A stretch of 47,264 nt of DNA from Candidatus Binatia bacterium (GTDB taxonomy: Bacteria; Desulfobacterota; Binatia; Bin18): positions 1-47,264 of the forward strand of contig CAXXHG010000029.1 of the NCBI GenBank assembly GCA_963666315.2, written 5' to 3'. Positions 2,633 through 39,495 of the stretch are shown here, piece by piece (the stretch's first letter is position 1; each line of letters begins with the position of its first letter). The notes beneath the pieces are model-generated. The model ran no database searches, was not told where the DNA came from, and saw only the letters and a list, made by a program, of their open reading frames with translations. A program made the position numbers and the translations under genes.

Positions 2633-5600
2633 ATGACACACGCCGGTATGCCCCGCAAACAAGGACTTTACGATCCACGTTTTGAGCATGACGCGTGCGG
2701 CATTGGTTTTGTCGTCAACATTAAGGGCAAACGGTCGCACCGCGTTCTTGAACAGGCCTTAACTGTTCTCATGAACTTGGATCATCGTGGCGCACGCGGC
2801 TGTGAAGAAGGCACTGGGGACGGCGCGGGCATCCTGCTCCAGGTTCCGCATGATTTTCTTCAACACTCCTGCGAAGGGCTGGGATTTCAGCTCCCCAAAC
2901 CCGGTCAGTACGGCATCGGTATGGTCTACCTCCCCCCGGACAGGGAGCAGCGGCACCAGTGCGAGCGTATGCTCGACACCATCATACGCGAGGAAGGGCA
3001 ACAGGTGCTGGGGTGGCGGAGCGTTCCCACTGACAATGCGTACTTGGGAGAAACAGCAAAGGCGTGTGAACCGTTTATCAGCCAGGTTTTTATCGGACGC
3101 AATGCTACCCTTGGCGGCGACCTCGCCTTTGAGCGCAAGCTGTATATTATCCGCCGCCGGGTCACCAATGCGATCCGGTACGGCGGTGTGCCTGGTGGGG
3201 AGTATTTCTATATTCCCAGCATGTCGTACAAAACGCTCATCTATAAGGGCATGCTCACCCCGCAACAGCTTGAGACCTTTTATCCGGATCTATCCGACCC
3301 GCGCGTGGAGACCGCTATTGCGCTCATCCATTCCCGCTTCAGCACCAACACCTTTCCAAGCTGGGAACGCTCGCATCCCTACCGTTACCTGATTCACAAT
3401 GGCGAAATTAATACGCTCCGCGGCAATGTGAACTGGATGCATGCCCGCCAGGCGATGATGGCCTCAGAGCTGTTCGGCGACGACCTGGCTAAGGTCTTCC
3501 CGGTAATCTTGGAAGACGGCAGTGACTCCGCAATCTTTGATAACTGCCTAGAGTTTTTAGCTTTAAGCGGCCGCTCGCTGCCGCATGCCATAATGATGAT
3601 GATCCCGGAACCGTGGGAGAATCATAAAAGCATGCCTGACGAGAAGCGCGCGTTCTACGAATACCATAGCTGTCTGATAGAGCCGTGGGATGGTCCGGCC
3701 TCAATCGCCTTCACAGATGGGACGCGGGTCGGTGCGGTACTAGACCGGAATGGACTGCGCCCGTCTCGATATTATGTCACCAAAGATGATTTGGTCATTA
3801 TGGGCTCCGAAGTCGGCGTTCTGGAAGTAGAACCAGAGCGAGTTTTAGAGAAGCGTCGTCTGCAGCCCGGCCGGATGTTCTTAGTTGATACGGAGGAAGG
3901 GCGCATTATTAGCGATGAAGAGCTGAAGCAGGCGGTGGTTTCCGCGCAGCCGTATCGGCAGTGGTTAAACGAGCACACCGTCTATTTTGACCAACTGCCC
4001 AATATTCCCGAAGAGCAACCGGCATATGACCATGACCCCACCCTCCAACGCCTCCAAGCATTTGGGTATAGCTTTGAGGACCTGCGGATCAATATCGGTC
4101 CTATGGCGGTGAATAAAATCCAACCGATAGGCTCGATGGGCACCGATACGCCGCTCGCGGTTCTGTCGGATAAACCCCAGCTTTTGTACAACTACTTCAA
4201 ACAGATTTTTGCCCAGGTCACCAATCCGCCTATCGATCCGATTCGGGAAGAGCTGGTGACTTCAACAACGCTGACTCTGGGGCCTGAGGGCAATCTGATC
4301 GGGGCTCGGCCGAACAGTTGTCGCCAGGTCCGGTTATCTATTCCGATTCTGAAAAATTCGGAATTACAAAAGCTGCGTCAGGTTGATCTGCGGGGACTGA
4401 AAGTCGTCACCTTGCCGATCCTTTTCAATCCGACAGCAGGACAAGCTGAACTTGAGCACGCACTCGAAGAACTCTTCCAAGCCGCGGACAAGGCCATTAC
4501 AGACGGGGCGGCCATTCTGATTCTGTCGGATAGAGACGTTGATCAGAAACGTGCGCCGATGCCTGCCCTGCTCGCCTCCTCCAGCTTGCATCATCATCTC
4601 ATCCGGGCGGGCACACGGACACGTGTCGGGCTCGTGCTCGAATCGGGCGAGCCACGCGAAGTGCATCACTTCTGTCTGCTGCTGGGGTACGGCATTCAGG
4701 CCGTTAATCCCTATATGGTCTACGAATGCCTGCATGACATGATCGGCGAGGGCATGCTGACGAGTATTTCCTATGCTGACGCCGTCAGTGGCTATATCAA
4801 AGCTGCCGTCAAGGGTGTGGTCAAAGTCATGTCCAAGATGGGGATTTCTACGATTAAGTCCTACTGTGGAGCCCAAATTTTTGAAGCCGTGGGTCTGGGG
4901 CAGGAGCTGGTCGATAAATATTTTACCTGGACCCCGTCTCGGGTGGGCGGGATTCAGCTGGCCGAAATCGCGCGTGAAGCCAGGCAGCAACACGCCAAGG
5001 CCTTCCCCGCCATTCCAGTCCGTGGCCGGACTCTCGAGGTCCATGGCCAGTATCAGTTCCGCAAAGATGGGGAACTGCACTTATTCAATCCACGCACCGT
5101 CCACCTGCTTCAAAAGGCGTGTCGTACGAATGACTACGCAATCTTTAAGGAATACGCCCGACTCATCGATGACCAGTCAGAACGGATGGCCACGCTGCGC
5201 GGCTTGCTGGAACTCAAACCCGCGCCAGAGCCCGTTCCGCTTGACGAAGTGGAATCGATTGAAGCCATCACCAAGCGCTTTAAGACAGGAGCCATGTCGT
5301 ATGGCTCCATCGGCCGGGAAGCGCACGAATCGCTCGCCATTGCCATGAACCGCATCGGCGGCAAGAGCAATACCGGCGAAGGGGGCGAAGACGCAGCACG
5401 CTATACGCCCGACCCGAACGGAGACTCGCGCAACAGCGCCATTAAGCAGGTTGCGTCAGGGCGCTTTGGTGTCACCAGCGAATACCTCACCCAAGCGCAA
5501 GAACTCCAGATCAAAATGGCACAGGGTGCCAAGCCGGGCGAAGGCGGAGAGCTGCCGGGCAGGAAAGTCTATCCCTGGATTGCCAAGGTGCGGCTCTCAA

Positions 5601-7231
5601 CACCTGGGGTCGGTCTGATTTCGCCCCCACCCCACCACGACATCTATTCTATTGAAGACTTAGCCCAGTTGATTCATGACCTGAAAAACGCCAACCACAA
5701 AGCCCGCATCAGCGTCAAATTGGTCTCTGAGATCGGCGTTGGTACCATTGCGGCCGGCGTGGCCAAAGGGCATGCCGACGTTGTACTCATCAGTGGCCAC
5801 GATGGCGGGACAGGCGCCTCGCCACAAACCAGCATTAAGCATGCGGGTTTGCCGTGGGAGCTCGGGGTGGCGGAAACACATCAAACGCTGCTGCTCAACA
5901 ACTTGCGCAGCCGCATTGTGATTGAGACAGACGGGCAGCTGAAAACCGGACGCGATGTCGTGATCGCCGCCCTCCTCGGCGCAGAAGAGTTTGGCTTTGC
6001 TACAGCTGCCCTCGTGTCGTTGGGTTGCATCATGATGCGCGTGTGTCACCTCGATACCTGCCCGGTCGGAGTGGCTACCCAGAATCCGGTGCTGCGTAAA
6101 AAATTCACCGGCGACCCGTCGCATGCGGTCAACTTCATGCATTTCGTTGCTCAGGAGATGCGGGAGCATATGGCCCAACTGGGCTTTCGCACTGTCAATG
6201 AAATGATCGGACGGACAGACAAAATTGAACCCAGACAGGCTATTGAGCACTGGAAGGCCAAAGGCTTGGATTACACGGACATTCTGTACCAACCCGAAGT
6301 TGGGCCGGAGATCGGTCGCTACTGTCAGATTGCCCAGAATCATGGACTAGAGAATTCGCTTGATAATCAGACCCTGCTTGACCTTGCTGAGCCGGCTTTG
6401 GAGCGCCAAGAAAAGGTCAAAGCCACCCTGCCCATACAGAACGTCAACCGGGTAGTAGGAACAATCGTAGGCAGTGAAATCACGCGTCGTTACGGCCCTG
6501 AAGGGTTGCCTGAGGATACGATACACTTTCATTTTCAGGGTTCTGCCGGGCAGAGTTTTAGTGCGTTTGTGCCGCCCGGTATGACCCTTGAACTGGAAGG
6601 CGATGCCAATGATTACCTCGGCAAGGGCCTGTCTGGAGGGAAAGTCATTCTGTATCCACCAGCAGGGTCCACCTTTGTCCCGGAGCAGAACATCATTGTT
6701 GGCAATGTTGCCTTTTATGGCGCAACAGCAGGCGAGGCATATATCCGAGGGATGGCCGGCGAGCGCTTTTGTGTCCGCAACAGCGGTGTCCGGGCAGTCG
6801 TAGAAGGCGTGGGGGATCATGGCTGTGAGTATATGACCGGCGGCCGCGCGCTGGTCATAGGCGAGACGGGACGAAACTTCGCAGCCGGTATGTCGGGCGG
6901 TATTGCCTACGTACTCGATGAGAATGACACTTTTAGTGATCTCTGTAATCTTGAGACGGTGACACTCGAACCCCTGGAAGAAAGCGACCTGGATGAGGTC
7001 AGGACGATGTTGCAGCAGCATGCCGCCTATACCCAGAGCGCGCACGCCTTACAGATTCTTGCTGACTGGGATGAGGACGGCCGGAAATTCGTCAAAGTCT
7101 TACCCAGAGATTATCAACGCATGCTCACCGCAATTGCGCAAGCAGAACAGGAGGGACTTATTGGGGAGGATGCCGTCATGGCCGCTTTTGAGGCCAATAA
7201 GAATGCAGCCGCGCGCGTCAGCGGCAACTAA
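2633..7231 (+). CDS. gltB: Glutamate synthase large subunit
   Basis: [16 protein letters not shown] (Ntn Cys1), [43 protein letters not shown] 3Fe-4S motif, GXGXG C-terminal domain; the ORF is open from 2594, ATG 2633 preferred. Confidence 0.97.
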
Positions 7232-7295
7232 TGACAACTAATTATTAGATTCAAGACGACGAGCAAGACGCACAGGGTGAGTGAAGGAAGAGAGT

Positions 7296-8780
7296 ATGGG
7301 GAAGCCGACCGGGTTCATGGAATATCAGCGTGAGTTGCCATCAGACCGCTCACCGCTGGAGCGCATCAACGACTGGAAGGAGTTTCACCAACATTTCCCT
7401 GACAGCAAGCTCCAGCAACAGGCCGGGCGGTGTATGGACTGCGGTATTCCGTTCTGTCACACCGGCACACTCATCGGTGGACTGGCTTCAGGCTGCCCGG
7501 TTAATAATCTCATCCCTGAATGGAATGACTTGGTGTACCAAGGACTGTGGCGAGAAGCGCTTGAGCGGCTGCATAAGACCAATAACTTCCCGGAATTCAC
7601 CGGGCGGGTCTGTCCGGCGCCGTGTGAAGGGTCATGTGTTCTGGGCATCAGCGATCCAGCGGTGACTATTAAGAATATTGAGGCTTCCATTGTGGATCGT
7701 GGTTTTGCTGAAGGCTGGATCACGCCCCAACCGCCTCAGAAACGAACGGGGAAGAAAGTCGCCGTTGTGGGCTCGGGTCCGTCAGGACTCTCCTGTGCGG
7801 CACAGCTCAACAAGGCGGGCCATTTGGTCACGGTGTACGAGCGGGCCGACCGAATCGGTGGGCTGCTCATGTACGGCATCCCCAATATGAAACTCGATAA
7901 AGCTCTCGTACAGCGGCGCATTGACATTCTGGCCGAAGAAGGCATCACGTTTGTCACAAATACCGCCATTGGCGTCGATATCCCGGCCACGCAACTCCAA
8001 CAAGATTTTGATGCCGTCGTGTTGTGTAGTGGCGCAACCAAGCCACGCGACCTGCCGGCGGCAGGACGCGACCTGAAAGGCATTCATTTTGCGATGGAGT
8101 TTCTGCACGCCAATACTAAAAGCCTCCTCGACTCGAACTATACCGATGGTGCGTATATTTCCGCCACAGACAAAAATGTAATCGTCATCGGCGGTGGTGA
8201 TACCGGGACTGACTGTGTGGGCACGTCGCTACGGCACAAATGCAAAACACTCACCCAGTTTGAGATTCTGCCTCAGCCTTCGCTAGAACGGCAGCCGGAC
8301 AATCCCTGGCCGGAGTGGCCGAAGGTTCTTCGGATTGATTATGGGCAAGAAGAGGCGGCTGCCCGCTTTGGCGACGACCCACGGATTTATTTGATACAGA
8401 CCGAGAAGTTTGTTGCGAATACTGACGGCCACGTGAAGGAACTGCATACGGTAGAGATTGAGTGGGCGAAAAACGAGAACGGCGCGTTCATTCCAAAACC
8501 CATATCCGGCACGGAAAAAGTGTGGCCGGCCGATCTCATCCTCTTAGCCATGGGCTTTCTTGGCCCAGAAGATCCCATCTTGCAACAACTCGACGTTGAA
8601 CGCGACCCTCGTTCCAATGCGAAAGCTGTGTACGGAAAATACCAGACCAATGTAGACGGCGTGTTTGCGGCCGGAGATATCCGTCGAGGACAGAGTCTGG
8701 TAGTTTGGGCCTTTAACGAAGGACGCGGCGCGGCCAGAGAAGTAGACCGGTATCTCATGGGCGCAACAGACCTGCCGTAA
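7296..8780 (+). CDS. gltD: Glutamate synthase small subunit
   Basis: [66 protein letters not shown]. Confidence 0.97.
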
Positions 8781-8850
8781 GGGAAGTACACTAAGGGAAG
8801 CAGACTGCCAGCCGATCGTTTCTGCATACCGTTCGAGAGGAGTATAGGCC

Positions 8851-9105
8851 ACGCAATCTATCACCGTGTATTCAATGGACTATTGAGGCTTCTGCACGGC
8901 AGCAAAGGCTTTGCTGACAAAAAAAGGAATTCCATTCGAAGACATTGATGTCTCCGACGATCCGGCCCTGCGCGAAGAGATCGCCCAGCGCTCGGGCCAG
9001 CGAACCGTACCCCAAATTTTCATTGGTGACGAGTCGATCGGCGGATTCATGGAGTTGCAGACACTGGAAGTCAGCGGCGAGTTGGATGACCTCCTGGCTG
9101 ATTAA
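8851..9105 (+). CDS. grxC: Glutaredoxin 3-like protein, probable selenoprotein (active site U-G-F-C, TGA at 8884-8886)
   Basis: Frame reads (ACG)QSITVYSMDY-TGA-GFCTAAKALLTKKGIPFEDIDV...SGQRTVPQIFIGDESIGGFMEL. The TGA is codon 12, the first Cys position of the GrxC CxxC. GAGGAG RBS lies 8 nt before the ACG at 8851. Confidence 0.88.
8900..8916 (+). promoter_or_regulatory. Candidate bacterial SECIS hairpin of the glutaredoxin
   Basis: CAGCAAA-GGC-TTTGCTG; G-initiated loop with a 20-nt spacer after the TGA. Confidence 0.6.
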
Positions 9106-9214
9106 AGCATGGCGAAGCAACGCTTCACCCATCCTCTTTTCCCCCTCTCTTCGCTTTTCCTGTCTGAGAGACCTTGCTATATCTCCCCCTACATTAATGT
9201 AAGGAGGGGATGGC

Positions 9215-9523
9215 ATGGCGCTCTATCTCGATGAAGTTTGGCTAAAAGATCCGAGCCCGGAGCGGATGAAAGAATTCGTGCGCTTGATCGGCTCAGCCGC
9301 AAAGAATCCAGCCTCAGTCGGCGCGCCCCAGGAGGTGCGTTTTGTTGCCGGACCTTGGGCATCGAATGAAGAAGCAAAAGTCATATTCGTTGTTGATATC
9401 CCGGATCATACTCCGACCTACCAAATTTTCGGCAGGCTCCTTTCAACAGGCTTAGTCGAAAAACGCCGTCTCACTCCGATTGTTGAGTGGGGCGAGGTCG
9501 AGAAGATGGTGGAGCAATTGTAG
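9215..9523 (+). CDS. Small hypothetical protein, possibly DUF3303-like (dimeric alpha/beta barrel)
   Basis: 102 aa ORF with AGGAGG RBS; family guess from the GPW...VIFVVD...RLTPIV pattern. Confidence 0.6.
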   Translation: MALYLDEVWLKDPSPERMKEFVRLIGSAAKNPASVGAPQEVRFVAGPWASNEEAKVIFVVDIPDHTPTYQIFGRLLSTGLVEKRRLTPIVEWGEVEKMVEQL

Positions 9524-9566
9524 CGATCCATCATGAGGATTGACCCGGCTCAGGGCTCATCCACAG

Positions 9567-10025
9567 TCAGCCGCTGGGGGGAGGTTGGACCATCTCCAGA
9601 ACGATCTGGTCAGAGTCCCAAAAGTAGCAGGTGTAACCACCCTGGTTGACTCCTGCGGTGATGGCGTTGGGTGGCGAGAAGAAATGGACGCCATCGGCCT
9701 TGAGCTGCTCGTAACGAGAGTGGATGTCTGTGACTGTGAGTGCCAGGTGAGCCTCGCCGGGATTGCATATATCCGGCTTCTGCCGCTTTCCCTTTGGGTG
9801 AACGTACTCAACTAACTCAAGATCGTGGCTCGACACACCACGAGGCTGCCCCGGGATTATGAACTGGGCCACCTTTAGGTGGGCGTTCTCATATCCAACC
9901 AGGCGGCTCGTATATGCATTGGCCTGCTCCTGGACAAGCAGCAGCTCGAGTCCGAGCTGCTTGTAGAAGGCAATTGATCGCTCAAGGTCTGAGACGGTCA
10001 GGCTGAAGTGCCAGACGCCCAACAT
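9567..10025 (-). CDS. VOC/glyoxalase family protein
   Basis: MLGVWHFSLTVSDLERSIAFY...LELVEY...HLALTVTD...YFWDSDQIVLEMVQ. Confidence 0.85.
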   Translation of the reverse strand: MLGVWHFSLTVSDLERSIAFYKQLGLELLLVQEQANAYTSRLVGYENAHLKVAQFIIPGQPRGVSSHDLELVEYVHPKGKRQKPDICNPGEAHLALTVTDIHSRYEQLKADGVHFFSPPNAITAGVNQGGYTCYFWDSDQIVLEMVQPPPSG

Positions 10026-10065
10026 GGCAATCTCCTCATCGATACTTCCCCTCAGCTGCTTCCAC

Positions 10066-10839
10066 TCAGTCAAATGCCAGCCCGCCGCACACGTTGAGCG
10101 CTTGGCCGGTGACATAGCTCGCCGCATCCGACAGGAGAAACCAAATAGCCTCCGCAACCTCCTGGGGACTTTCGATGCGTCCCAGTGGAATAGTGTCAGT
10201 CAGACCGGCGAGCGATTCTTCTACGCTGATGCCTCGTCGTGCCGCACGTTCGACATGGATATCACGAGTCATTGCGGTCTCTACCACTCCGGGGCAGACC
10301 GCATTCACGTGGATGTCGGCAGAAGCAAGACTGACGGCAGCGGAGCGGACCAAACTGGTGAGACCGGCTTTGCTGGCTGCATAGTCGCTGCTATCGGCAC
10401 GTGGGCCGCGCCCGGCCACTGACGCAACCATCACAATACGGCCGGGCCGGTCAGCCTCGACAAGGTGACGAGCGATGGCCTGGATGCTGAAGAACGCGCC
10501 GGTCAGATTCACGTCGAACGTCCGACGCCACTAACGCGGCGACAGCTCAAGGAAGTCGCCGATGTCGACAATGCCGGCGGTATACACAAGCCGACTGACG
10601 ACACCGAACTCGGCACGCGCCTGATCAATCAAAGAGGCATCGGTCACGTCGACGCTTTAGGCAAGGGCCGGTGTGTTGAGACTCGCGACACTCGCCTCCG
10701 CGCGCACATAGTCGATATCAGCAGCAATAATAGGGAAACCTTGGTCGGCGATCTTGGCGACGACAGCGCTGCCTATGCCCCCGCACCCAATCACCACAGC
10801 TGCTCCGTCAATGAACTCAGGTGACTCATGCCCTGCCAT
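10066..10839 (-). pseudogene. SDR family oxidoreductase pseudogene with two in-frame nonsense codons
   Basis: GCGGIG Rossmann motif, YAASK, VNAVCPGVVET, GQALNVCGG all in one frame, interrupted by TAA (10657-10659) and TAG (10531-10533). Confidence 0.8.
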
Positions 10840-10953
10840 CGCATCCACTCCTAGCGCGACCAAGCGCTGTGACCGAACGACCTAGGCCTGTGAGTTTGGG
10901 CAGTCTACACAGAAAATCATATACGCCTCTCAGCAACAGTCTGTAGCTGCCCC

Positions 10954-11855
10954 TTAAGCCGACACTTCACACACCACGCAGACTTCAGGATCATTCTGTT
11001 CAGCCAGAATACGATCCTGTTCGGTTTGGTATTGTGGCGTATCAAGGCGTGAAATGCGCGCATCTCCGTCATTCATGGCTGAGTCTTTCCAGCTGTCATC
11101 TTCAGCCCAGCGAAAGGGCAGCTGGCTTGATTTTCCCCGGCTCTTTGAGCGAGCTGAACGCGTCGAGGGCTTCGATCAGAAATCTCTCGCTGGAGATCGG
11201 GCTCATGCAGTTTTCCGGTCGTGTGGCCGAGCTCATAGTCGAGAAAGGCGGCACGAGGCGGATGAACCGACTCCAGGATGTCCAGCGCACTGCCCATACA
11301 CAGGGTGGGGATGCCAGCCGCCTCAACAGTACGTGCGATCAGTCCCACGGACTGATGACACACGGGTCAGACAGGGACCAGAAGAGCCACATCGACCTGT
11401 TCAGCCCTCAATTGTTCGGTCAGTCGAGGGGCCAGTTCATCCCGCACTTTTCGCGAAGAATAAATTCCACCCATGAAAGTAAAAGCGTTGTCAGCCAGTT
11501 CACCGATCACGCCCTCTTTTTCTAATCGACGCAGCGTATCAATCGGAAAGACTACGTTGGGATCCTGCCGGGCGTCGGTTTGGTCATAGGCAAAATGAGC
11601 CGTACGCAAGTCAGCAGTTTTGACATCCCGGGGAATGACTCGAAACGAAAAATCGTCTTTGGTGTGAAAGGCCACCTGGCCGGTGACATAGATACCGCCG
11701 GAGGCGATCAGCCCGAGGCGACACTCCGCTAGCGGCTTTGTGAGAGGTGTCCACGGCGGGACGTCTTCATTACGCACCCATCGATACGTCTTATAGTCGA
11801 GCGCGGCGTAATTATCGGTAATCCGTTTGATGTAATCGACTGGCAGCTTCTGCAT
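10954..11855 (-). CDS. Glycine/sarcosine/betaine/D-proline reductase selenoprotein B (PrdB/GrdB)-family protein, U-P-V-C motif; two apparent +1 errors in the 3' part
   Basis: PWTPLTKPLAECRLGLIASGG, HFAYD, DPNVVFPIDTL, then VALLVPV-TGA-PVCHQSVGLIARTVEAAGIPT in frame (TGA 11367-11369). Removing single bases near 11181 and 11125 extends it to ...DTPQYQTEQDRILAEQNDPEVCVVCEVSA*. GGAGG RBS before ATG 11855. Confidence 0.88.
11332..11364 (-). promoter_or_regulatory. Candidate bacterial SECIS hairpin of the PrdB-like gene
   Basis: CGTGTG-TC-ATCAGTCC-GTG-GGACTGAT-CGCACG; perfect 8-bp upper stem and GU-initiated loop with an 18-nt spacer after the TGA. Confidence 0.75.
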
Positions 11856-34395: not shown

Positions 34396-36294
34396 GTGCG
34401 ACAACAACTCTACGACTATCTCATCAATCGGCCTGGTGGGGCTACATCAGCCGAACTCCTCAACGAGATCTTCATCTCAGGTGCAGTTTCGCCGTTTCCG
34501 TCTCAGCGCGACCCCGAACTCGGCTCCCGTCTTCTGCATTCATCCCTAGGCGCAGATCCCAATTTTTCCTACGATCCAACCACAGATTGTTGGTCGCTCA
34601 CACTCCATACCCACTTGCAGCAGCCAATTCAGGATACTCAGTTTATCGTTCTTGACTTGGAGACGACCGGACTCAAGCCTGGCAAGGCGGCCATTACAGA
34701 GATCGCAGCTATCCGTGTGGAAAAAGGATGCCTGGGAGAAGAGTTCCATACCCTGGTTCATCCAGGCCGTCGCGTTCCTGTTGCCATTACCCGACTCACC
34801 GGCATCACCGATGAGATGCTGCGCGACCAAGCGCGTATTCAAGAAATCTTCCCTCAGCTCCTTGCTTTTCTTGGCTCTGCCGTCCTGGTCGCCCACAATG
34901 CCGGCTTTGACCTCGGCTTTCTCAACTTTGATGGGCAGCGCCTTGTGTCCACCCCCCTCTTCAACTCCTCGGTCTGCACTCTCAAGCTCGCTCGACGGCT
35001 GCTCTCCGGCATTCGGTCTCGCTCCCTTGACTCAGTCGCTGCCCATCTCGGAGTTTCCTACCCCACCCAGCATCGCGCCTTAGAAGACGCCCGGGTGACC
35101 GCCGAGATTTTTTGTATCTTCCTCGAACAGCTGGCCGCACAAGGCATCACCACACTGGGGCAGCTGATTGATTTTCAACATAGTGCCCGCGATGGACGGC
35201 GCTTTGAGTTCTTTGTTCCCCGCTCGACACTCACCCACCTGCCTGAGGGCCCGGGCGTCTATCGCATGCTCGATGTCGAGGGCGAGCTACTCTATATCGG
35301 CAAAGCTAAAAATCTCCACCGCCGCGTCAATTCCTATTTCACCAATTCGTCCGGACATAGCGACAATGTCCTCGACTTAGTCCGCCACGCACGCGAAGTG
35401 ACCTACGAACAAACCGGCTCGGAACTTGAAGCTTCACTGCGCGAGGCTGAGCTGATTCGCACGCTCAAGCCACCCTATAACCGTCTTTCCAAACATCTGC
35501 CGCGAGTCGCATTTCTCAAATTGACCGTACGAAATGCCTATCCACGTCTCTCAGTGACGGCAAAACCGAGTAGTGATCGGGCCATGTATGTGGGGCCATT
35601 CCGAAATCGAGACTTTGCCGAACAGGCCCAGCGGTTACTTGCGCGGCTGTTTGGACTGCGGACGTGTCAGGGTAATCTCTCCCCTGCTCCCGAGATCTCC
35701 CCGTGTCTGAGTGGCCAGATTGGTACGTGCACGTCCCCCTGTGCAGCCCACGTTTCACAGGAGACTTATAGTGAACAGGTGCAGCGTTTTACGGCTTTTC
35801 TCAATGGAGAAGCCACACCACTGCGAGACGCTCTTGTCGAGAAACGCGACCGTTTGGCCGCCCATTTACAGTACGAAGGTGCCGCTCGCCTGCAGCAAGA
35901 CATTGAACTCCTCGACCACATTCTGCATTTGCACCAACGCTTTCACTGGATCGTGACCCGGGCCAATGCCTTTCTTTTGCTGCCGAGTCGCCAAACCGGC
36001 GCGGCCCAAGCCTATCTCGTTCTTAATGGACGTCTGATCGACAACCGTATCGTTTCCGAACCTTGCGACTTGGAACACTTTGCCGCTCTCGTCCAGGAGC
36101 AGTTTGCGCGTGACCGCGATGTCCCGCTGCGCCCACGAGAAATTGACGCCAGCGTCATTCTGGCGGCCTGGCTGCGCGATCCGGGCCACGCTCAAAGCGC
36201 AGTGTTCTCGATCAAAGACGCCTCGACCCTACGCACCCAACTTGACGAGATCGAGATAGCCCTGCAGGACCTGCAACGCGTGGAGCCGGTATAA
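34396..36294 (+). CDS. DEDDh (DnaQ-like) exonuclease fused to a UvrC/Cho-like GIY-YIG nuclease
   Basis: VLDLETTG, LVAHNAGFD, HRALEDA, then LPEGPGVYRM...LYIGKAKNLHRRVNSYF, Cys-rich region and UVR-like helix LQYEGAARLQQ. Confidence 0.9.
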   Translation: MRQQLYDYLINRPGGATSAELLNEIFISGAVSPFPSQRDPELGSRLLHSSLGADPNFSYDPTTDCWSLTLHTHLQQPIQDTQFIVLDLETTGLKPGKAAITEIAAIRVEKGCLGEEFHTLVHPGRRVPVAITRLTGITDEMLRDQARIQEIFPQLLAFLGSAVLVAHNAGFDLGFLNFDGQRLVSTPLFNSSVCTLKLARRLLSGIRSRSLDSVAAHLGVSYPTQHRALEDARVTAEIFCIFLEQLAAQGITTLGQLIDFQHSARDGRRFEFFVPRSTLTHLPEGPGVYRMLDVEGELLYIGKAKNLHRRVNSYFTNSSGHSDNVLDLVRHAREVTYEQTGSELEASLREAELIRTLKPPYNRLSKHLPRVAFLKLTVRNAYPRLSVTAKPSSDRAMYVGPFRNRDFAEQAQRLLARLFGLRTCQGNLSPAPEISPCLSGQIGTCTSPCAAHVSQETYSEQVQRFTAFLNGEATPLRDALVEKRDRLAAHLQYEGAARLQQDIELLDHILHLHQRFHWIVTRANAFLLLPSRQTGAAQAYLVLNGRLIDNRIVSEPCDLEHFAALVQEQFARDRDVPLRPREIDASVILAAWLRDPGHAQSAVFSIKDASTLRTQLDEIEIALQDLQRVEPV

Positions 36295-36385: not shown

Positions 36386-36394
36386 TTGCCCATC

Positions 36395-38074
36395 ATGACA
36401 GCTGTCCCGGTGACAACTCAACTGCAGACATTACTCAAACGGTCTGGTCCGGCTCTGATCCTTGGTGCACACGATGCCCTATCGGCCAAGCTTGCGGAAG
36501 AGGCGGGATTTGATGCCATCTGGGCTAGCGGCTTTTGCATTTCCGCCGTCAACGCCCTCCCCGATGCCAATATTCTCACCATGAGTGAAACCTTGGATGC
36601 CGTCCGGCGTATGAGCGATGCAGTCACTATTCCGGTGCTGGCCGACTGCGATAACGGCTTTGGGAATGCCATCAATGTCATGCGAACCGTCGCCGAGTAC
36701 GAACGCGCCGGAGCAGCAGGTATTTGCATTGAAGATAATATTTTTCCCAAACGCTGTAGTTTTTATACCGGCGTACAACGCGAACTGGTGTCCATTGAGG
36801 AGCATGCCCGAAAGATCCAGGCCGCTAAGGCCGCGCGCCGCGACCCTGATTTTGTCATTATTGCCCGAACCGAAGCCTTTATTGCCGGTTGGGGCAAACA
36901 AGAAGCGCTGAGCCGGGCGCATGCCTACGCTGACGCGGGCGCGGATGCCATTCTCATCCACTCTAAGGCAGCCACATTTGAAGAAGAACTCAAGGATTTT
37001 GCAGCAAGTTGGGATGGCGCCTGCCCACTCGTATCCGTCCCGACCACCTATGCCAGCGTCACGGCTCAGGATCTTGCTGCAGCCGGCTTTCAGCTCGTGA
37101 TATTTGCCAATCAAACCCTGCGAGCGGCTGTCACCGCTATGCGTCAGGCGCTGGCCACCCTCAGGCGGGAAGAACGACCAGCGGCCGTTGATGAACAGAT
37201 AGTCACGCTTCCTGAGATCTACGACCTGGTTGGAGTCCCCGCTCTTCAAGCCAATGAGAAAAAATTTTTAGTACCGGGTGGGCATGACGTCACCGCCATT
37301 ATTATTGCTGCCGGGTTTGAGGAAGGGCTGCTGCCGCTGATCGAGGACCGGCCCAAAGCCATGCTCGAAATCAAAGGCAAGACGCTCCTAGAGCGGCAGA
37401 TTCAGGCCCTCAACGAGTGTGGGGTCAAAGATATTGTCGTGGTACGCGGCTATCATAAAGAGCAGATCGATCTGCCCAATATTCGCTACTACGATAACGA
37501 CCGTTTCCGCGATACGGGCGAGCTGACCTCGTTGTTCACGGCCAACTCAGAAATGTCAGACCGCTTTCTCTTTCTCTATTCGGACATTCTTTTCGATCCG
37601 TCTATTCTCGAAAAACTCCTCAAGTCCCGGGCTGATATTAGCATTGTGGTAGATCGTGCCTGGAATGACCATGAACGGACCCGGAAAGAACAGCGAACAA
37701 AGAAACCCGACCTCGTCGTGACCCCCCAGCCACCCCAAACTGGCTATCGTTATCTCCCCACAGCAGAAGCAATACCCCTGGCACGAATCGGTCGCCAACT
37801 CCCGCTAGACGAAGCCGACGGTGAATTTGTTGGGATGGCAATGTTCTCGGCAGCAGGTGCCCAGACCCTCTGCACGGTCTATCAGCAGGTCCAAACGCGA
37901 GACTTCTCTCGCGGCTTCCATGAAGCCGGCTCGTTGGAAACTGCGGCGTTCACCGATATGCTGCAGGAATTGGTTGACCAACAACATGAGGTGGCGTGTG
38001 TCGATATCTATAAGGGCTGGCTTGAGATCGACACCTTTGAAGACTACCGACGCGCGTGGGCCAAGATAAAATAG
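36395..38074 (+). CDS. PEP mutase/isocitrate lyase superfamily enzyme (PepM-like, atypical loop) fused to a LicC/PntC-like nucleotidyltransferase
   Basis: N-domain GAHDALSA, WASGF, ADCDNGFG, EDNIFPKRCSF, ARTEAFIAG, ILIHSK, VPTTY; C-domain IIIAAG...RPKAML, VVRGY, YSDILF, WLEIDTFEDY. Confidence 0.85.
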   Translation: MTAVPVTTQLQTLLKRSGPALILGAHDALSAKLAEEAGFDAIWASGFCISAVNALPDANILTMSETLDAVRRMSDAVTIPVLADCDNGFGNAINVMRTVAEYERAGAAGICIEDNIFPKRCSFYTGVQRELVSIEEHARKIQAAKAARRDPDFVIIARTEAFIAGWGKQEALSRAHAYADAGADAILIHSKAATFEEELKDFAASWDGACPLVSVPTTYASVTAQDLAAAGFQLVIFANQTLRAAVTAMRQALATLRREERPAAVDEQIVTLPEIYDLVGVPALQANEKKFLVPGGHDVTAIIIAAGFEEGLLPLIEDRPKAMLEIKGKTLLERQIQALNECGVKDIVVVRGYHKEQIDLPNIRYYDNDRFRDTGELTSLFTANSEMSDRFLFLYSDILFDPSILEKLLKSRADISIVVDRAWNDHERTRKEQRTKKPDLVVTPQPPQTGYRYLPTAEAIPLARIGRQLPLDEADGEFVGMAMFSAAGAQTLCTVYQQVQTRDFSRGFHEAGSLETAAFTDMLQELVDQQHEVACVDIYKGWLEIDTFEDYRRAWAKIK

Positions 38075-38160: not shown

Positions 38161-39126
38161 ATGGACCTGCAGCGAATCGACGCACTCATCACAGACGAAT
38201 ACGCCTTCTTCCTGCGCGCACGAAACAGCTGGAGTCTCACCGCAGGACCGCAAGATCTTGAGCTTGTCGCGCATGCTCTGCGCGTCCTCCTCCACGCTCG
38301 AACTACGCCGGATTTTCTTGATGACTATACGGCCCTGGTAGCCTGCCAAAACACCGCTGGCGGCTGGAGTCCGTTGTCCTCCGATACTGACAGCACCGTG
38401 TGGGTGTCTGCCTTCTGTGGCCTCATGCTCATTCGCGCGAATCGTTTCCTCCACCACGATCACCTCACACGATCGGTCCAGCAGGCCATCGACTATTTTC
38501 TCGACACCCAGCACCAGGACGGCCGTTGGGTTGATCCGGCCTGGGCCGACCTCGATACGACCAGCCATCCGGTGAGCTTTTTCAATGTGGTGATGGCTCT
38601 CGGCGAAACGCACCGTCAGCCAGAGGTTCAACGGGCCTGGGAACAGGGGCTACGGTTTATTATCGACAACCAAAGCCCAGACGGCGGCTGGTACGATCAG
38701 GAGTTTCACCCGTCAGGGGTTGAGATTACCGCGCACTTGATTCAGGACGCCCTAGTAGCAGACCTTGTCATTGATCGTCGCGTCAACGGGGTCCGAGCAT
38801 CCTGCACCAAAGGCGCTGCTCGGCTGAGTGAGTGGCAGGCGCAGGCGGGTTCATGGGACGACGAAAATATTGATCACACGATGGACTGCACCCGGTCTCT
38901 CATGTTGGTGACCCGCATTCTCGCCGAAAGCTCACATAACGATACGATTATGCGCGGTCTCGGCTGGATCATGAACAACAAAAACGAGCACGGCTGGGGT
39001 GATTTTCCCGGCATGGAGACTAACCTAGAACGCACCTGTGACGGTCTCGATACCATGCTCAAGTATAAAGCCTACTGTCACAGTGAAGCGGACGCCGTCA
39101 TCAAACTCTGGGGCTACCTCCGGTAG
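38161..39126 (+). CDS. Prenyltransferase/squalene-cyclase repeat (alpha/alpha toroid) protein
   Basis: Five QW-type motifs: QNTAGGW, QHQDGRW, QSPDGGW, QAQAGSW, KNEHGW; no DXDD cyclase motif. Confidence 0.75.
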   Translation: MDLQRIDALITDEYAFFLRARNSWSLTAGPQDLELVAHALRVLLHARTTPDFLDDYTALVACQNTAGGWSPLSSDTDSTVWVSAFCGLMLIRANRFLHHDHLTRSVQQAIDYFLDTQHQDGRWVDPAWADLDTTSHPVSFFNVVMALGETHRQPEVQRAWEQGLRFIIDNQSPDGGWYDQEFHPSGVEITAHLIQDALVADLVIDRRVNGVRASCTKGAARLSEWQAQAGSWDDENIDHTMDCTRSLMLVTRILAESSHNDTIMRGLGWIMNNKNEHGWGDFPGMETNLERTCDGLDTMLKYKAYCHSEADAVIKLWGYLR

Positions 39127-39162: not shown

Positions 39163-39495
39163 ATGCCGTCTTCGGAGCCAGCCGCTTCCACAAATCATCG
39201 CTGGGTTGAAGCCTGCACAATAGATGCACTTCCGCCTGGAGAACGTAAGCTCATCAAGATCGACGACGTCGAGATTGCCCTATTCAATATTGACGAGACA
39301 GTCTTTGCCATCAAAAACCGCTGTCCCCATAGCAGCGGCCCGCTCATCCGTGGCTATATAGATAATGCAGGCGGAATTAAGTGCCCGATGCATGGCTGGC
39401 GATTTGATCTCCGAACGGGTGAAAGCAAGCGTCCGGCTCATGCGACTGTCTATCAGGTCAAAATCGAAGGCGGAGATATTTATCTTGCGCTTTAG
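39163..39495 (+). CDS. Rieske (2Fe-2S) ferredoxin
   Basis: CPHSSGPL...CPMHGWRFDL. Confidence 0.92.
   Translation: MPSSEPAASTNHRWVEACTIDALPPGERKLIKIDDVEIALFNIDETVFAIKNRCPHSSGPLIRGYIDNAGGIKCPMHGWRFDLRTGESKRPAHATVYQVKIEGGDIYLAL

Follow-up and report, generated by a model that had tools for sequence, protein, structure and literature searches.

This report concerns a fused gene on the forward strand of a 47,264-nucleotide DNA stretch from a Candidatus Binatia bacterium (hereafter the window, which is the whole of contig CAXXHG010000029.1, our contig C29). The gene joins an N-terminal barrel of the phosphoenolpyruvate (PEP) mutase type to a C-terminal nucleotidyltransferase (NT) domain, and its gating loop reads EDNIFPKRCS in the place of the EDKX5NS signature of PEP mutase (PepM). 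Judged by its sequence, the product is a widespread, uncharacterised relative of PEP mutase and a variant of a known enzyme type, and we consider it probable that it is a genuine mutase, forming carbon-phosphorus (C-P) bonds, that is missed by mining with EDKX5NS. This most likely reading draws on indirect evidence from five independent directions: the catalytic set, the gene context, the co-occurrence of pathway genes, the mutual exclusivity with canonical PepM and the fusion architecture. An initial annotation of the window, made from the letters alone, had wavered between a divergent C-P mutase overlooked by mining and new chemistry; the subfamily to which the barrel belongs, the 2-aminoethylphosphonate (AEP)-type clusters around its relatives and the lack of a canonical PepM in genomes that carry the variant favor the former.

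Gating loop and active-site residues

The translation of the window agrees with the initial annotation on the position of EDNIFPKRCS (36731-36760, forward strand) and on the PepM-type strings in the same frame, namely WASG (36521-36532), ARTEA (36863-36877), LIHSK (36953-36967) and VPTTY (37037-37051). Residues of the window protein are numbered here from the TTG at 36386, where the open reading frame (ORF) of 562 amino acids opens. Alignments of the loop to solved enzymes contain no gaps (IEDKRFPKVNSF for 5unc, MEDKTFPKDTSL for 2dua, LEDKLFPKTNSL for 1m1b and IEDNIFPKRCSF for the window protein), so that C124 can be placed in the column of Asn122 of the Mytilus enzyme and N118 in that of Lys116. 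The signature EDKX5NS is therefore absent (Lys to Asn, Asn to Cys), while its E and D, the P-K pair and the S are kept. The Mg2+ site and the phosphoryl binders of PEP mutase are complete, comprising D60, D87, D89, E116, R161, H192 and S125 (Table 1).

The accessible portion of PMC7916636 describes Mg2+ as bound directly by D85 and through water by D58, D87 and E114, and the phosphonyl oxygens as contacted by R159, H190 and, hypothetically, N122 and S123. The same portion states that most authors trace the different outcome of phosphonopyruvate hydrolase (PPH) to the single change Asn122Thr. Given this role ascribed to Asn122 in the mutase or hydrolase outcome, the residue replaced in the window protein is one that matters.

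We compared columns across 137 PepM-domain rows, made up of the window protein, 133 of 150 representatives and three lyase-type paralogs from the same genome; 17 rows that aligned over < 240 residues were left out. Across the 18 rows with EDN..CS or EDS..CS loops, W44, S46, D58, D85, D87, E114, D115, K120, S123, R159 and H190 (Mytilus numbering) are retained, with R159 in 18/18 and H190 in 16/18. In the six lyase-type rows the His190 column is occupied by I, E or D and the Ser123 column by G or A, and by this comparison H190 and S123 are mutase-specific. All six also have Cys in the Asn122 column, as the initial annotation had said of lyases, and these include the three paralogs of this genome with EDQ..P[KR]RCG. 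Its remark that the PPH loop differs again is borne out by the alignments, which show EDK and D-T-S. The variant rows and the 82 canonical rows differ systematically at position 118 (N against K), 124 (C against N), 132 (R against Q) and 127 (Y against I, L or V). All four positions lie within the gating loop, and at all four the variant rows resemble the lyase-type rows.

Family assignment and predicted fold

The models of the neighboring families score below their curated cut-offs: TIGR02321 (PPH) gives 278.8 bits against 374.4, TIGR02317 (methylisocitrate lyase) 202.4 against 354.4, TIGR02319 (carboxyphosphoenolpyruvate mutase) 133.7 against 420, and the isocitrate lyase models at most 38.5 against 562. 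The best solved matches are 5unc (Streptomyces platensis PepM, 3.7e-82), 2dua (PPH, 4.2e-74) and 1m1b (mussel PepM, 2.4e-67), with the lyase structures trailing at 1e-39 and weaker. None of the solved structures or curated families searched shares the motif. An AlphaFold2 model built from a 15-row alignment (mean predicted local distance difference test score, pLDDT, 73.5) was used for fold assignment alone. With it Foldseek ranked 5unc, 1s2v, 2dua and 1pym, whose template modeling (TM) scores relative to the target are 0.75-0.81, ahead of the lyases; the best match was 5unc, with a TM score of 0.76 on the same normalisation. By sequence and by predicted fold, then, the nearest relatives of the barrel are PepM and PPH.

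The initial annotation gave the gene as 36395..37300, a span that covers the N-terminal domain; the ORF continues to 38074. It had seen the barrel alone and missed both the C-terminal nucleotidyltransferase and the genomic context. The start codon is likely the ATG at 36395, where homologs of 556-559 amino acids begin (MTA...). The layout of the protein, with PepM at the N-terminus and NT at the C-terminus in about 540-560 amino acids, is also that of many canonical EDK..NS representatives, and Ppm-PntC fusions of like architecture are described in PMC6697681, as far as its available text goes.

Distribution and conservation of the variant loop

The homolog list comprised the best 120 of 2636 proteins with E <= 1e-3, out of 8000 scored candidates. 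All of these best 120 (58-98% identity) carry EDN[IVL][FY]PKRCS, spelled EDNIFPKRCS in 90, EDNVFPKRCS in 26, EDNVYPKRCS in 3 and EDNLFPKRCS in 1. A degenerate DNA pattern for EDNx[FY]PKRCS occurs in 42 of 121 genomes of the same class, with one match each and synonymous codon variation, at the places where PepM-like matches below the cut-off sit; a reversed-pattern control gave no match in the 121 genomes. The motif is a family trait, neither chance nor sequencing error.

In species genomes, at least 559 of the 587 stretches that match the pattern encode a relative, and 80 of these confirmed stretches were kept as context loci. They are labelled Binatia, Nitrospirota, Polyangiaceae, Planctomycetota, Acidobacteriota and others. 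Across phyla the mean column identity is 72%, and the metal and phosphoryl ligands are conserved. Three loci with 79-95% identity (L001, L002 and L014) are labelled as an uncultured Enterobacteriaceae bacterium, and these labels look wrong because all other close relatives are labelled Binatia or Deltaproteobacteria. A metagenome scan with P0132, a basal stand-alone representative with an EDN..CS loop, returned no EDN..CS loop among 80 loci (32-45% identity), and 70 of the 80 were of the lyase type EDQ..CG.

Gene context in relatives

Neighbor families were obtained by de novo clustering of the ORFs around the 80 loci, and phosphonopyruvate decarboxylase (Ppd) was recounted with clean queries. 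The recurrent neighbors are the two halves of a split thiamine pyrophosphate (TPP)-dependent decarboxylase, a second NTP_transf_3 protein, a class-V aminotransferase, a CDP-alcohol phosphatidyltransferase and an LPG-synthase-TM protein. The decarboxylase halves score 136 and 179 bits with TIGR03297 (Ppd), and the aminotransferase scores 355.6 bits with TIGR03301 (AEP aminotransferase, AEPT), whose cut-off is 360.8. Split Ppd halves lie in the fetched flank of 35 of the 80 loci. Where at least 3 kb was available on each side (51 loci), both halves are present in 23, every one of which belongs to the 34 loci at <= 61% identity.

Three more variant loci from Nitrospirota (L123-L125) show the order LPGs-CDPOH-PntC-AEPT-Ppd, divergent from a small ORF, the variant gene, HlyD and AcrB; in L125 the query for the Ppd beta half alone matched. 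Six canonical Nitrospirota loci (EDKLFPKTNS), whose proteins are 36-38% identical to the variant, have other contexts, with split Ppd in 1/6. As a side observation, the Nitrospirota-type loci (L024-L026, L043, L070, L074, L079 and L123-L125) share HlyD and AcrB-type efflux genes after the variant gene, and before it a small ORF of a family we call c18 (about 150-200 amino acids, no Pfam match). A sulfonate pathway, with sulfopyruvate decarboxylase and a taurine-type transaminase, was also considered for these clusters and set aside, since the transaminase scores at the cut-off of the AEP family; we know of no PepM-type barrel with a role in a sulfonate pathway.

Co-occurrence in whole genomes

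The class sample consisted of the 121 genomes already mentioned, in which PepM-like genes were taken at E <= 1e-60 and Ppd-like genes at E <= 1e-30. The genomes are related and hence not independent, so the counts that follow should be read as a pattern, with no statistical test implied. A PepM-like gene is found in 45 genomes, always one per genome, and it is the variant in 42 (233-298 bits) and canonical in 3 (361-387 bits). Ppd-like matches are found in 57 genomes, comprising 40/42 with the variant, 3/3 with the canonical gene and 14 that have no PepM-like gene; the two variant genomes without such a match are G202 and the genome of the window itself. Outside the window's family, Ppd lies within about 3 kb of the barrel in 23 of 27 variant genomes, on another contig in 3 and nowhere in 1.

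Among 151 Nitrospirota genomes, 26 have a PepM-like gene, again one each (22 canonical, 4 variant). The canonical and variant forms occur together in none of the 71 genomes with a PepM-like gene (45 of the class and 26 Nitrospirota). Six variant genomes were inspected, this one and five others, and none contains a match above the TIGR02320 cut-off; all five others have split Ppd halves and an AEPT-like gene, the latter over its cut-off in two. The Ppd that goes with the variant is always split into alpha and beta halves (about 110-187 bits each), and two of the three canonical class genes (genomes G200 and G218) adjoin a full-length Ppd (about 354 bits). The variant with split Ppd and the canonical form with full-length Ppd thus look like two distinct cassettes.

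Phylogeny

A barrel-only search of 1.84 billion representatives gave 10329 matches at E <= 1e-3. The best 150 of these include 25 with EDN..CS, 2 with EDS..CS and 82 with EDK..NS by first match (86 when a second match in four multi-domain proteins is counted). Trees were built with FastTree (137 rows) and with an IQ-TREE quick search under a site-mixture model (85 rows: all 55 not labelled EDK..NS and a hand-picked 30 of the 82 EDK..NS rows). Both were rooted on the three lyase-type paralogs of this genome, with support given as SH-like values and no bootstraps. In each tree a mutase subfamily with support 99 includes the window protein and excludes the EDQ..KRCG rows. Within it, a canonical clade with support 97 (91 rows, FastTree) or 96 (39 rows, IQ-TREE) holds nearly all EDK..NS rows, together with P0174 (nearest to 1m1b, 418 bits), P0149 (5unc, 491 bits) and P0170 (PPH 2dua, 334 bits). 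The EDN..CS and EDN..NS rows form a basal grade outside this clade, in which most basal forks have support < 95 and the order is unsettled. The phylogenetic check proposed with the initial annotation therefore gave no grouping with a characterized clade that shares the motif: the protein lies in the PepM/PPH subfamily, outside the clade of solved enzymes. It is a plausible inference from these sequences that the Cys was retained from a lyase-like ancestor.

Other loops were seen among the best 150 representatives (P0121-P0270): EDN..NS in 13, EDQ..NS in 4, EDN..HS and EDK..SS in 2 each, EDK..TS in a few, and EDH..NS, EDA..NS and EDG..NS in one each. Going by their sequences, most of the loops that differ from EDK..NS would also fail an EDKX5NS filter.

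Weighing the alternatives

A number of results weigh against a C-P-forming mutase. The score with the PEP mutase model TIGR02320 is 288.4 bits (290.8 in the genome search), below the curated cut-off of 319.55. In the loop, Lys116 is replaced by Asn, and Asn122, the position that most authors use to tell mutase (Asn) from PPH (Thr), is replaced by Cys. In the mussel enzyme, changes at N122 reportedly cause severe impairment. The AlphaFold2 model has pLDDT < 50 at residues 50-64 and at 121-130, in the gating loop, and is silent on geometry. In neither tree does the window protein fall within the clade to which the relatives of the three solved PepM/PPH structures belong, and with PPH nested in that clade, PPH is closer to canonical PepM than the window protein is. 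As to context, the decarboxylase halves match the models of the sulfopyruvate decarboxylase subunits about equally well (120 and 195 bits). In the window's own family, Ppd is next to the gene in 0/17 well-flanked close relatives and beside it in 0/15 genomes, where terpene-cyclase-like and Rieske genes are found instead. Finally, the 14 genomes with Ppd-like matches and no PepM-like gene mean that the Ppd marker is not fully specific at E <= 1e-30; the matches in these genomes score lower.

These points leave room for an enzyme that acts on phosphonopyruvate without making it, either a PPH-like hydrolase or one that cleaves or edits the P-C bond, with the loop Cys protonating the pyruvate enolate, as its counterpart does in the lyases. 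The use of position 122 by most authors to explain the mutase or hydrolase outcome (PMC7916636, in the part available) would fit such an enzyme, as would a loop that is lyase-like at 118, 123, 124, 127 and 132 and a PPH model score near that of the PepM model (278.8 against 288.4 bits). We nevertheless hold it to be very improbable: the neighbors are biosynthetic (decarboxylase, transaminase, cytidylyltransferases and lipid transferases), the 46 variant genomes (42 and 4) have no other PepM-like gene and thus would lack a source of phosphonopyruvate, the score stays under the PPH cut-off of 374.4, and the PPH-like rows (EDK..D[TS]S) belong to the canonical clade, a long way from the window protein. 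Lyase or aldolase-type C-C chemistry, with the Cys as general acid/base and the enzyme recruited to a later step of the phosphonate cluster, draws on the K-R-C triad common to the methylisocitrate-lyase-type paralogs (EDQ..PKRCG) and on the basal position of the variant rows in the mutase subfamily, adjacent to lyase-type rows. The lyase signature, however, is a K-[KR]-C-G-H loop, and the window protein has S-F-Y after the Cys instead of Gly-His; it also keeps the mutase-specific H190 and S123, its lyase-model scores are far under their cut-offs (TIGR02317, 202 against 354; isocitrate lyase, 38 against 562), and the pathway would still be left without a step that forms the C-P bond. This makes a lyase quite unlikely in our judgment.

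The loss of two canonical motif residues and the degenerate signature loop of the fused NT domain could also point to a barrel that survives as a non-catalytic or regulatory remnant, so that the partner genes alone would matter. The very strong conservation (72% mean column identity), with metal and phosphoryl ligands kept, the synonymous variation of the motif codons across 42 genomes, and the retention of Ppd and AEPT in genomes where this single-copy gene is the sole PepM-like one make this the least credible explanation. A more elaborate proposal keeps the C-P chemistry and adds three elements jointly, namely a catalytic Cys by which this early-branching lineage takes a non-canonical route to the C-P bond, a living intermediate between Cys-dependent lyases and Asn-type mutases, and the placing of AEP on hopanoids. 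An example of such a route would be a transient S-phosphocysteine, which would bring back the covalent double-displacement mechanism formerly put forward for PEP mutase to account for the retention seen at phosphorus. The hopanoid part comes from the run of Ppd, AEPT and PntC genes into hpnK, facing hpnI and hpnJ, and from the position of the mutase gene beside a terpene-cyclase-like gene. Taken as a whole, this combination seems unlikely to us.

Proposed activity

For the preferred reading, a C-P-forming PEP mutase with a variant gating loop, we infer the reaction catalyzed, the function of the Cys and the end product from the observed sequence, its conservation, its position in the tree, its context and its co-occurrence. 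PEP would be bound by Mg2+ held by D60, D87, D89 and E116, and the gating loop (about residues 117-135) would close over it. The phosphoryl group, held by R161, H192, S125 and the thiol of C124, would then leave the enol oxygen for C3, which gives phosphonopyruvate; in this step the thiol would stand in for Asn122. The conversion of PEP to phosphonopyruvate is thermodynamically uphill, and it would be pulled by the two-subunit (split) Ppd. An AEP transaminase would next yield AEP, which a PntC-type cytidylyltransferase would convert to CMP-AEP, acting as the stand-alone enzyme and possibly also as the fused C-terminal domain. A membrane lipid or glycan would then receive the activated AEP. The mutase gene of this genome would have moved away from the other pathway genes, which lie at the end of contig C40 next to hpnI, hpnJ, hpnK and hpnL.

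Comparison with known systems and consequences for mining

Canonical PepM (1M1B/1PYM and 5UNC) has the same barrel, with 41-49% identity over about 287 columns, the same Mg2+ ligands, R159, H190, S123 and K120, and the same frequent fusion to PF12804. The window protein differs from it by Lys116 to Asn, Asn122 to Cys, Q130 to Arg and a Tyr at 127. The pathway neighbors are alike (Ppd, AEPT, PntC and CDP-alcohol transferase) and correspond to the cluster type that the accessible text of PMC8942020 describes. PPH (PalA of Variovorax, 2DUA) belongs to the same subfamily, and both proteins swap Asn122 for another small polar residue, but PPH keeps EDK and D-T-S while the window protein has N and R-C-S. 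The context of PPH is catabolic, unlike the biosynthetic context of the relatives of the variant. With the lyases of the PrpB (1MUM) and isocitrate lyase type the window protein shares the superfamily fold, the P-K-R-C stretch, the Cys column and an amide after E-D (Q in the lyases, N here); identity to methylisocitrate and isocitrate lyases is 28-32%, and it lacks their G-H after the Cys and has the mutase His and Ser.

Phosphonates serve as antibiotics, herbicides and cell-surface lipids and make up a large marine and soil phosphorus pool. If the variant is active, a mutase with Cys for Asn122 and Asn for Lys116 would change which residues count as essential, and it would be a natural test case for the origin of mutases from Cys-dependent lyases. 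The initial annotation was right that PEP mutases are mined with EDK-X5-NS: as far as their available texts go, four published pipelines require it (PMC6697681, PMC8942020, PMC8931226 and PMC12723261), and the variant would therefore be discarded by them. Of the 45 genomes of the class sample that contain a PepM-like gene, 42 would be lost to this filter. Because it discards a widespread variant, the production of phosphonates by nitrifying communities and in soils and sediments may be undercounted. The Ppm-PntC/AEP clusters of Rice et al. 2019 (PMC6697681) and Li & Horsman 2022 (PMC8942020) likewise have the fusion and a stand-alone PntC, Ppd, AEPT and phospholipid-type transferases. In the portions available, these inventories retained EDKX5NS proteins only, unlike the window protein, and PMC6697681 removed 22 fused proteins without EDKX5NS and does not describe them further there. 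We found no description of a PepM with an EDN..CS loop, or of the motif strings, in the accessible literature; subscription journals were outside its coverage and may hold an earlier mention.

The fused nucleotidyltransferase domain

The C-terminal domain matches PF12804 with 51.5 bits against a cut-off of 27 (1.7e-13) and, among solved proteins, LicC (1jyk, 1.1e-14) and the Treponema denticola PntC-AEPT (6pd1, 1.8e-7). It is homologous over its full length to the NT domain of the canonical PepM fusions. A basic residue of the N-terminal loop of these enzymes binds the nucleotide triphosphate. The fused domain has no intact G-x-G-x-R nucleotide-binding loop (about residues 302-340, 37289-37400): it reads AAGFEE(G), where AAGVGKRF or AAGRSTRL is found in the pathway's stand-alone PntC-like proteins. 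From this sequence the fused domain may be altered or inactive as a cytidylyltransferase, which would be in keeping with the second, stand-alone PntC that always accompanies it. Degenerate versions of the loop are also seen in canonical PepM fusions.

Phosphonate and hopanoid genes of this genome

At the end of contig C40 (C40:112150-119148, corresponding to 4151-11149 of locus L088) there is an AEP aminotransferase with 360.1 bits against the TIGR03301 cut-off of 360.8, together with a PntC-like gene and then hpnK (319 bits, cut-off 233). Facing them are hpnI (380 against 310), hpnJ (721 against 578) and an HpnL-like gene (183 against 196). The last ~200 bp of C40 encode the C-terminus of a Ppd beta subunit, broken by the contig end, with 83% identity over 36 residues to a protein of genome G001. 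A TIGR03297 search of this genome returned generic TPP enzymes only (best 33.5 bits), which is explained by the contig break; the coupling to Ppd is thus partial here, in the form of the beta C-terminus next to AEPT. The order hpnJ-hpnI with hpnK-PntC-AEPT-Ppd on the opposite strand recurs in 4/4 other genomes fetched from the family. A squalene-hopene cyclase (639 bits, cut-off 431) and hpnH (379, cut-off 225) are encoded in this genome as well. With the AEP genes contiguous with hpnK and facing hpnI and hpnJ, the arrangement hints at an AEP-decorated bacteriohopanepolyol, a phosphonate-decorated hopanoid. The available portions of PMC8942020 and PMC8776678 speculate on terpene-phosphonates for canonical PepM clusters.

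Neighboring genes in the window

The features discussed in this report are listed in Table 1. The terpene-cyclase-like protein downstream of the fused gene matches SQHop_cyclase_C with 31.8 bits and squalene-hopene cyclase (2sqc) at 2e-7 over about 80 residues, beyond which no solved relative matches; it falls in an Atlas cluster of 321-residue proteins with a score of 0.98. Its gene is downstream in 20 of the 21 closest loci (L001-L021), L019 being cut off. Among distant loci it is adjacent only in L071, and the copy in L023 lies about 7 kb away on the opposite strand. The exonuclease/GIY-YIG gene is upstream in most of L001-L021 and is probably a syntenic neighbor outside the pathway.

Table 1. 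Features of the window, with strand and supporting detail (residues of the window protein numbered from TTG 36386)
Feature	Position	Strand	Detail
Fused PEP-mutase-type and nucleotidyltransferase gene	36395..38074	+	559 aa from ATG 36395
PEP mutase/isocitrate lyase superfamily barrel, PepM/PPH subfamily	36395..37285	+	PF13714, 207 bits, residues 14-258
C-terminal LicC/PntC-type nucleotidyltransferase domain	37289..38074	+	PF12804 (NTP_transf_3, MobA-like), residues 322-427
Gating-loop motif EDNIFPKRCS	36731..36760	+	E116, D117, N118, K122, C124, S125
N118 codon	36737-36739	+	Column of Mytilus Lys116
C124 codon TGT	36755-36757	+	Column of Mytilus Asn122
Mg2+-site acids D60, D87, D89	36563-36565, 36644-36646, 36650-36652	+	Mytilus D58, D85, D87 (1m1b alignment)
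Phosphoryl-binding R161, H192	36866-36868, 36959-36961	+	Mytilus R159, H190
Alpha/alpha-toroid protein, terpene cyclase/mutase family	38161..39126	+	321 aa from ATG 38161; ORF opens 38056
Small Rieske [2Fe-2S] ferredoxin, third of conserved trio	39163..39495	+	Rieske matches; same position in L001-L021
DEDD exonuclease / GIY-YIG (UvrC-like) fusion	34396..36294	+	Pfam RNase_T and GIY-YIG; NCBIfam DEDD models below cut-off
TldD/PmbA-family metallopeptidase gene pair	31555-34349	+	Upstream of exonuclease; syntenic in 16/80 loci
rRNA operon	26204-31134	-	16S 29581-31134, two tRNAs 29329-29506, 23S 26204-29185

The rRNA operon accounts for the ORF-poor stretch of the window.

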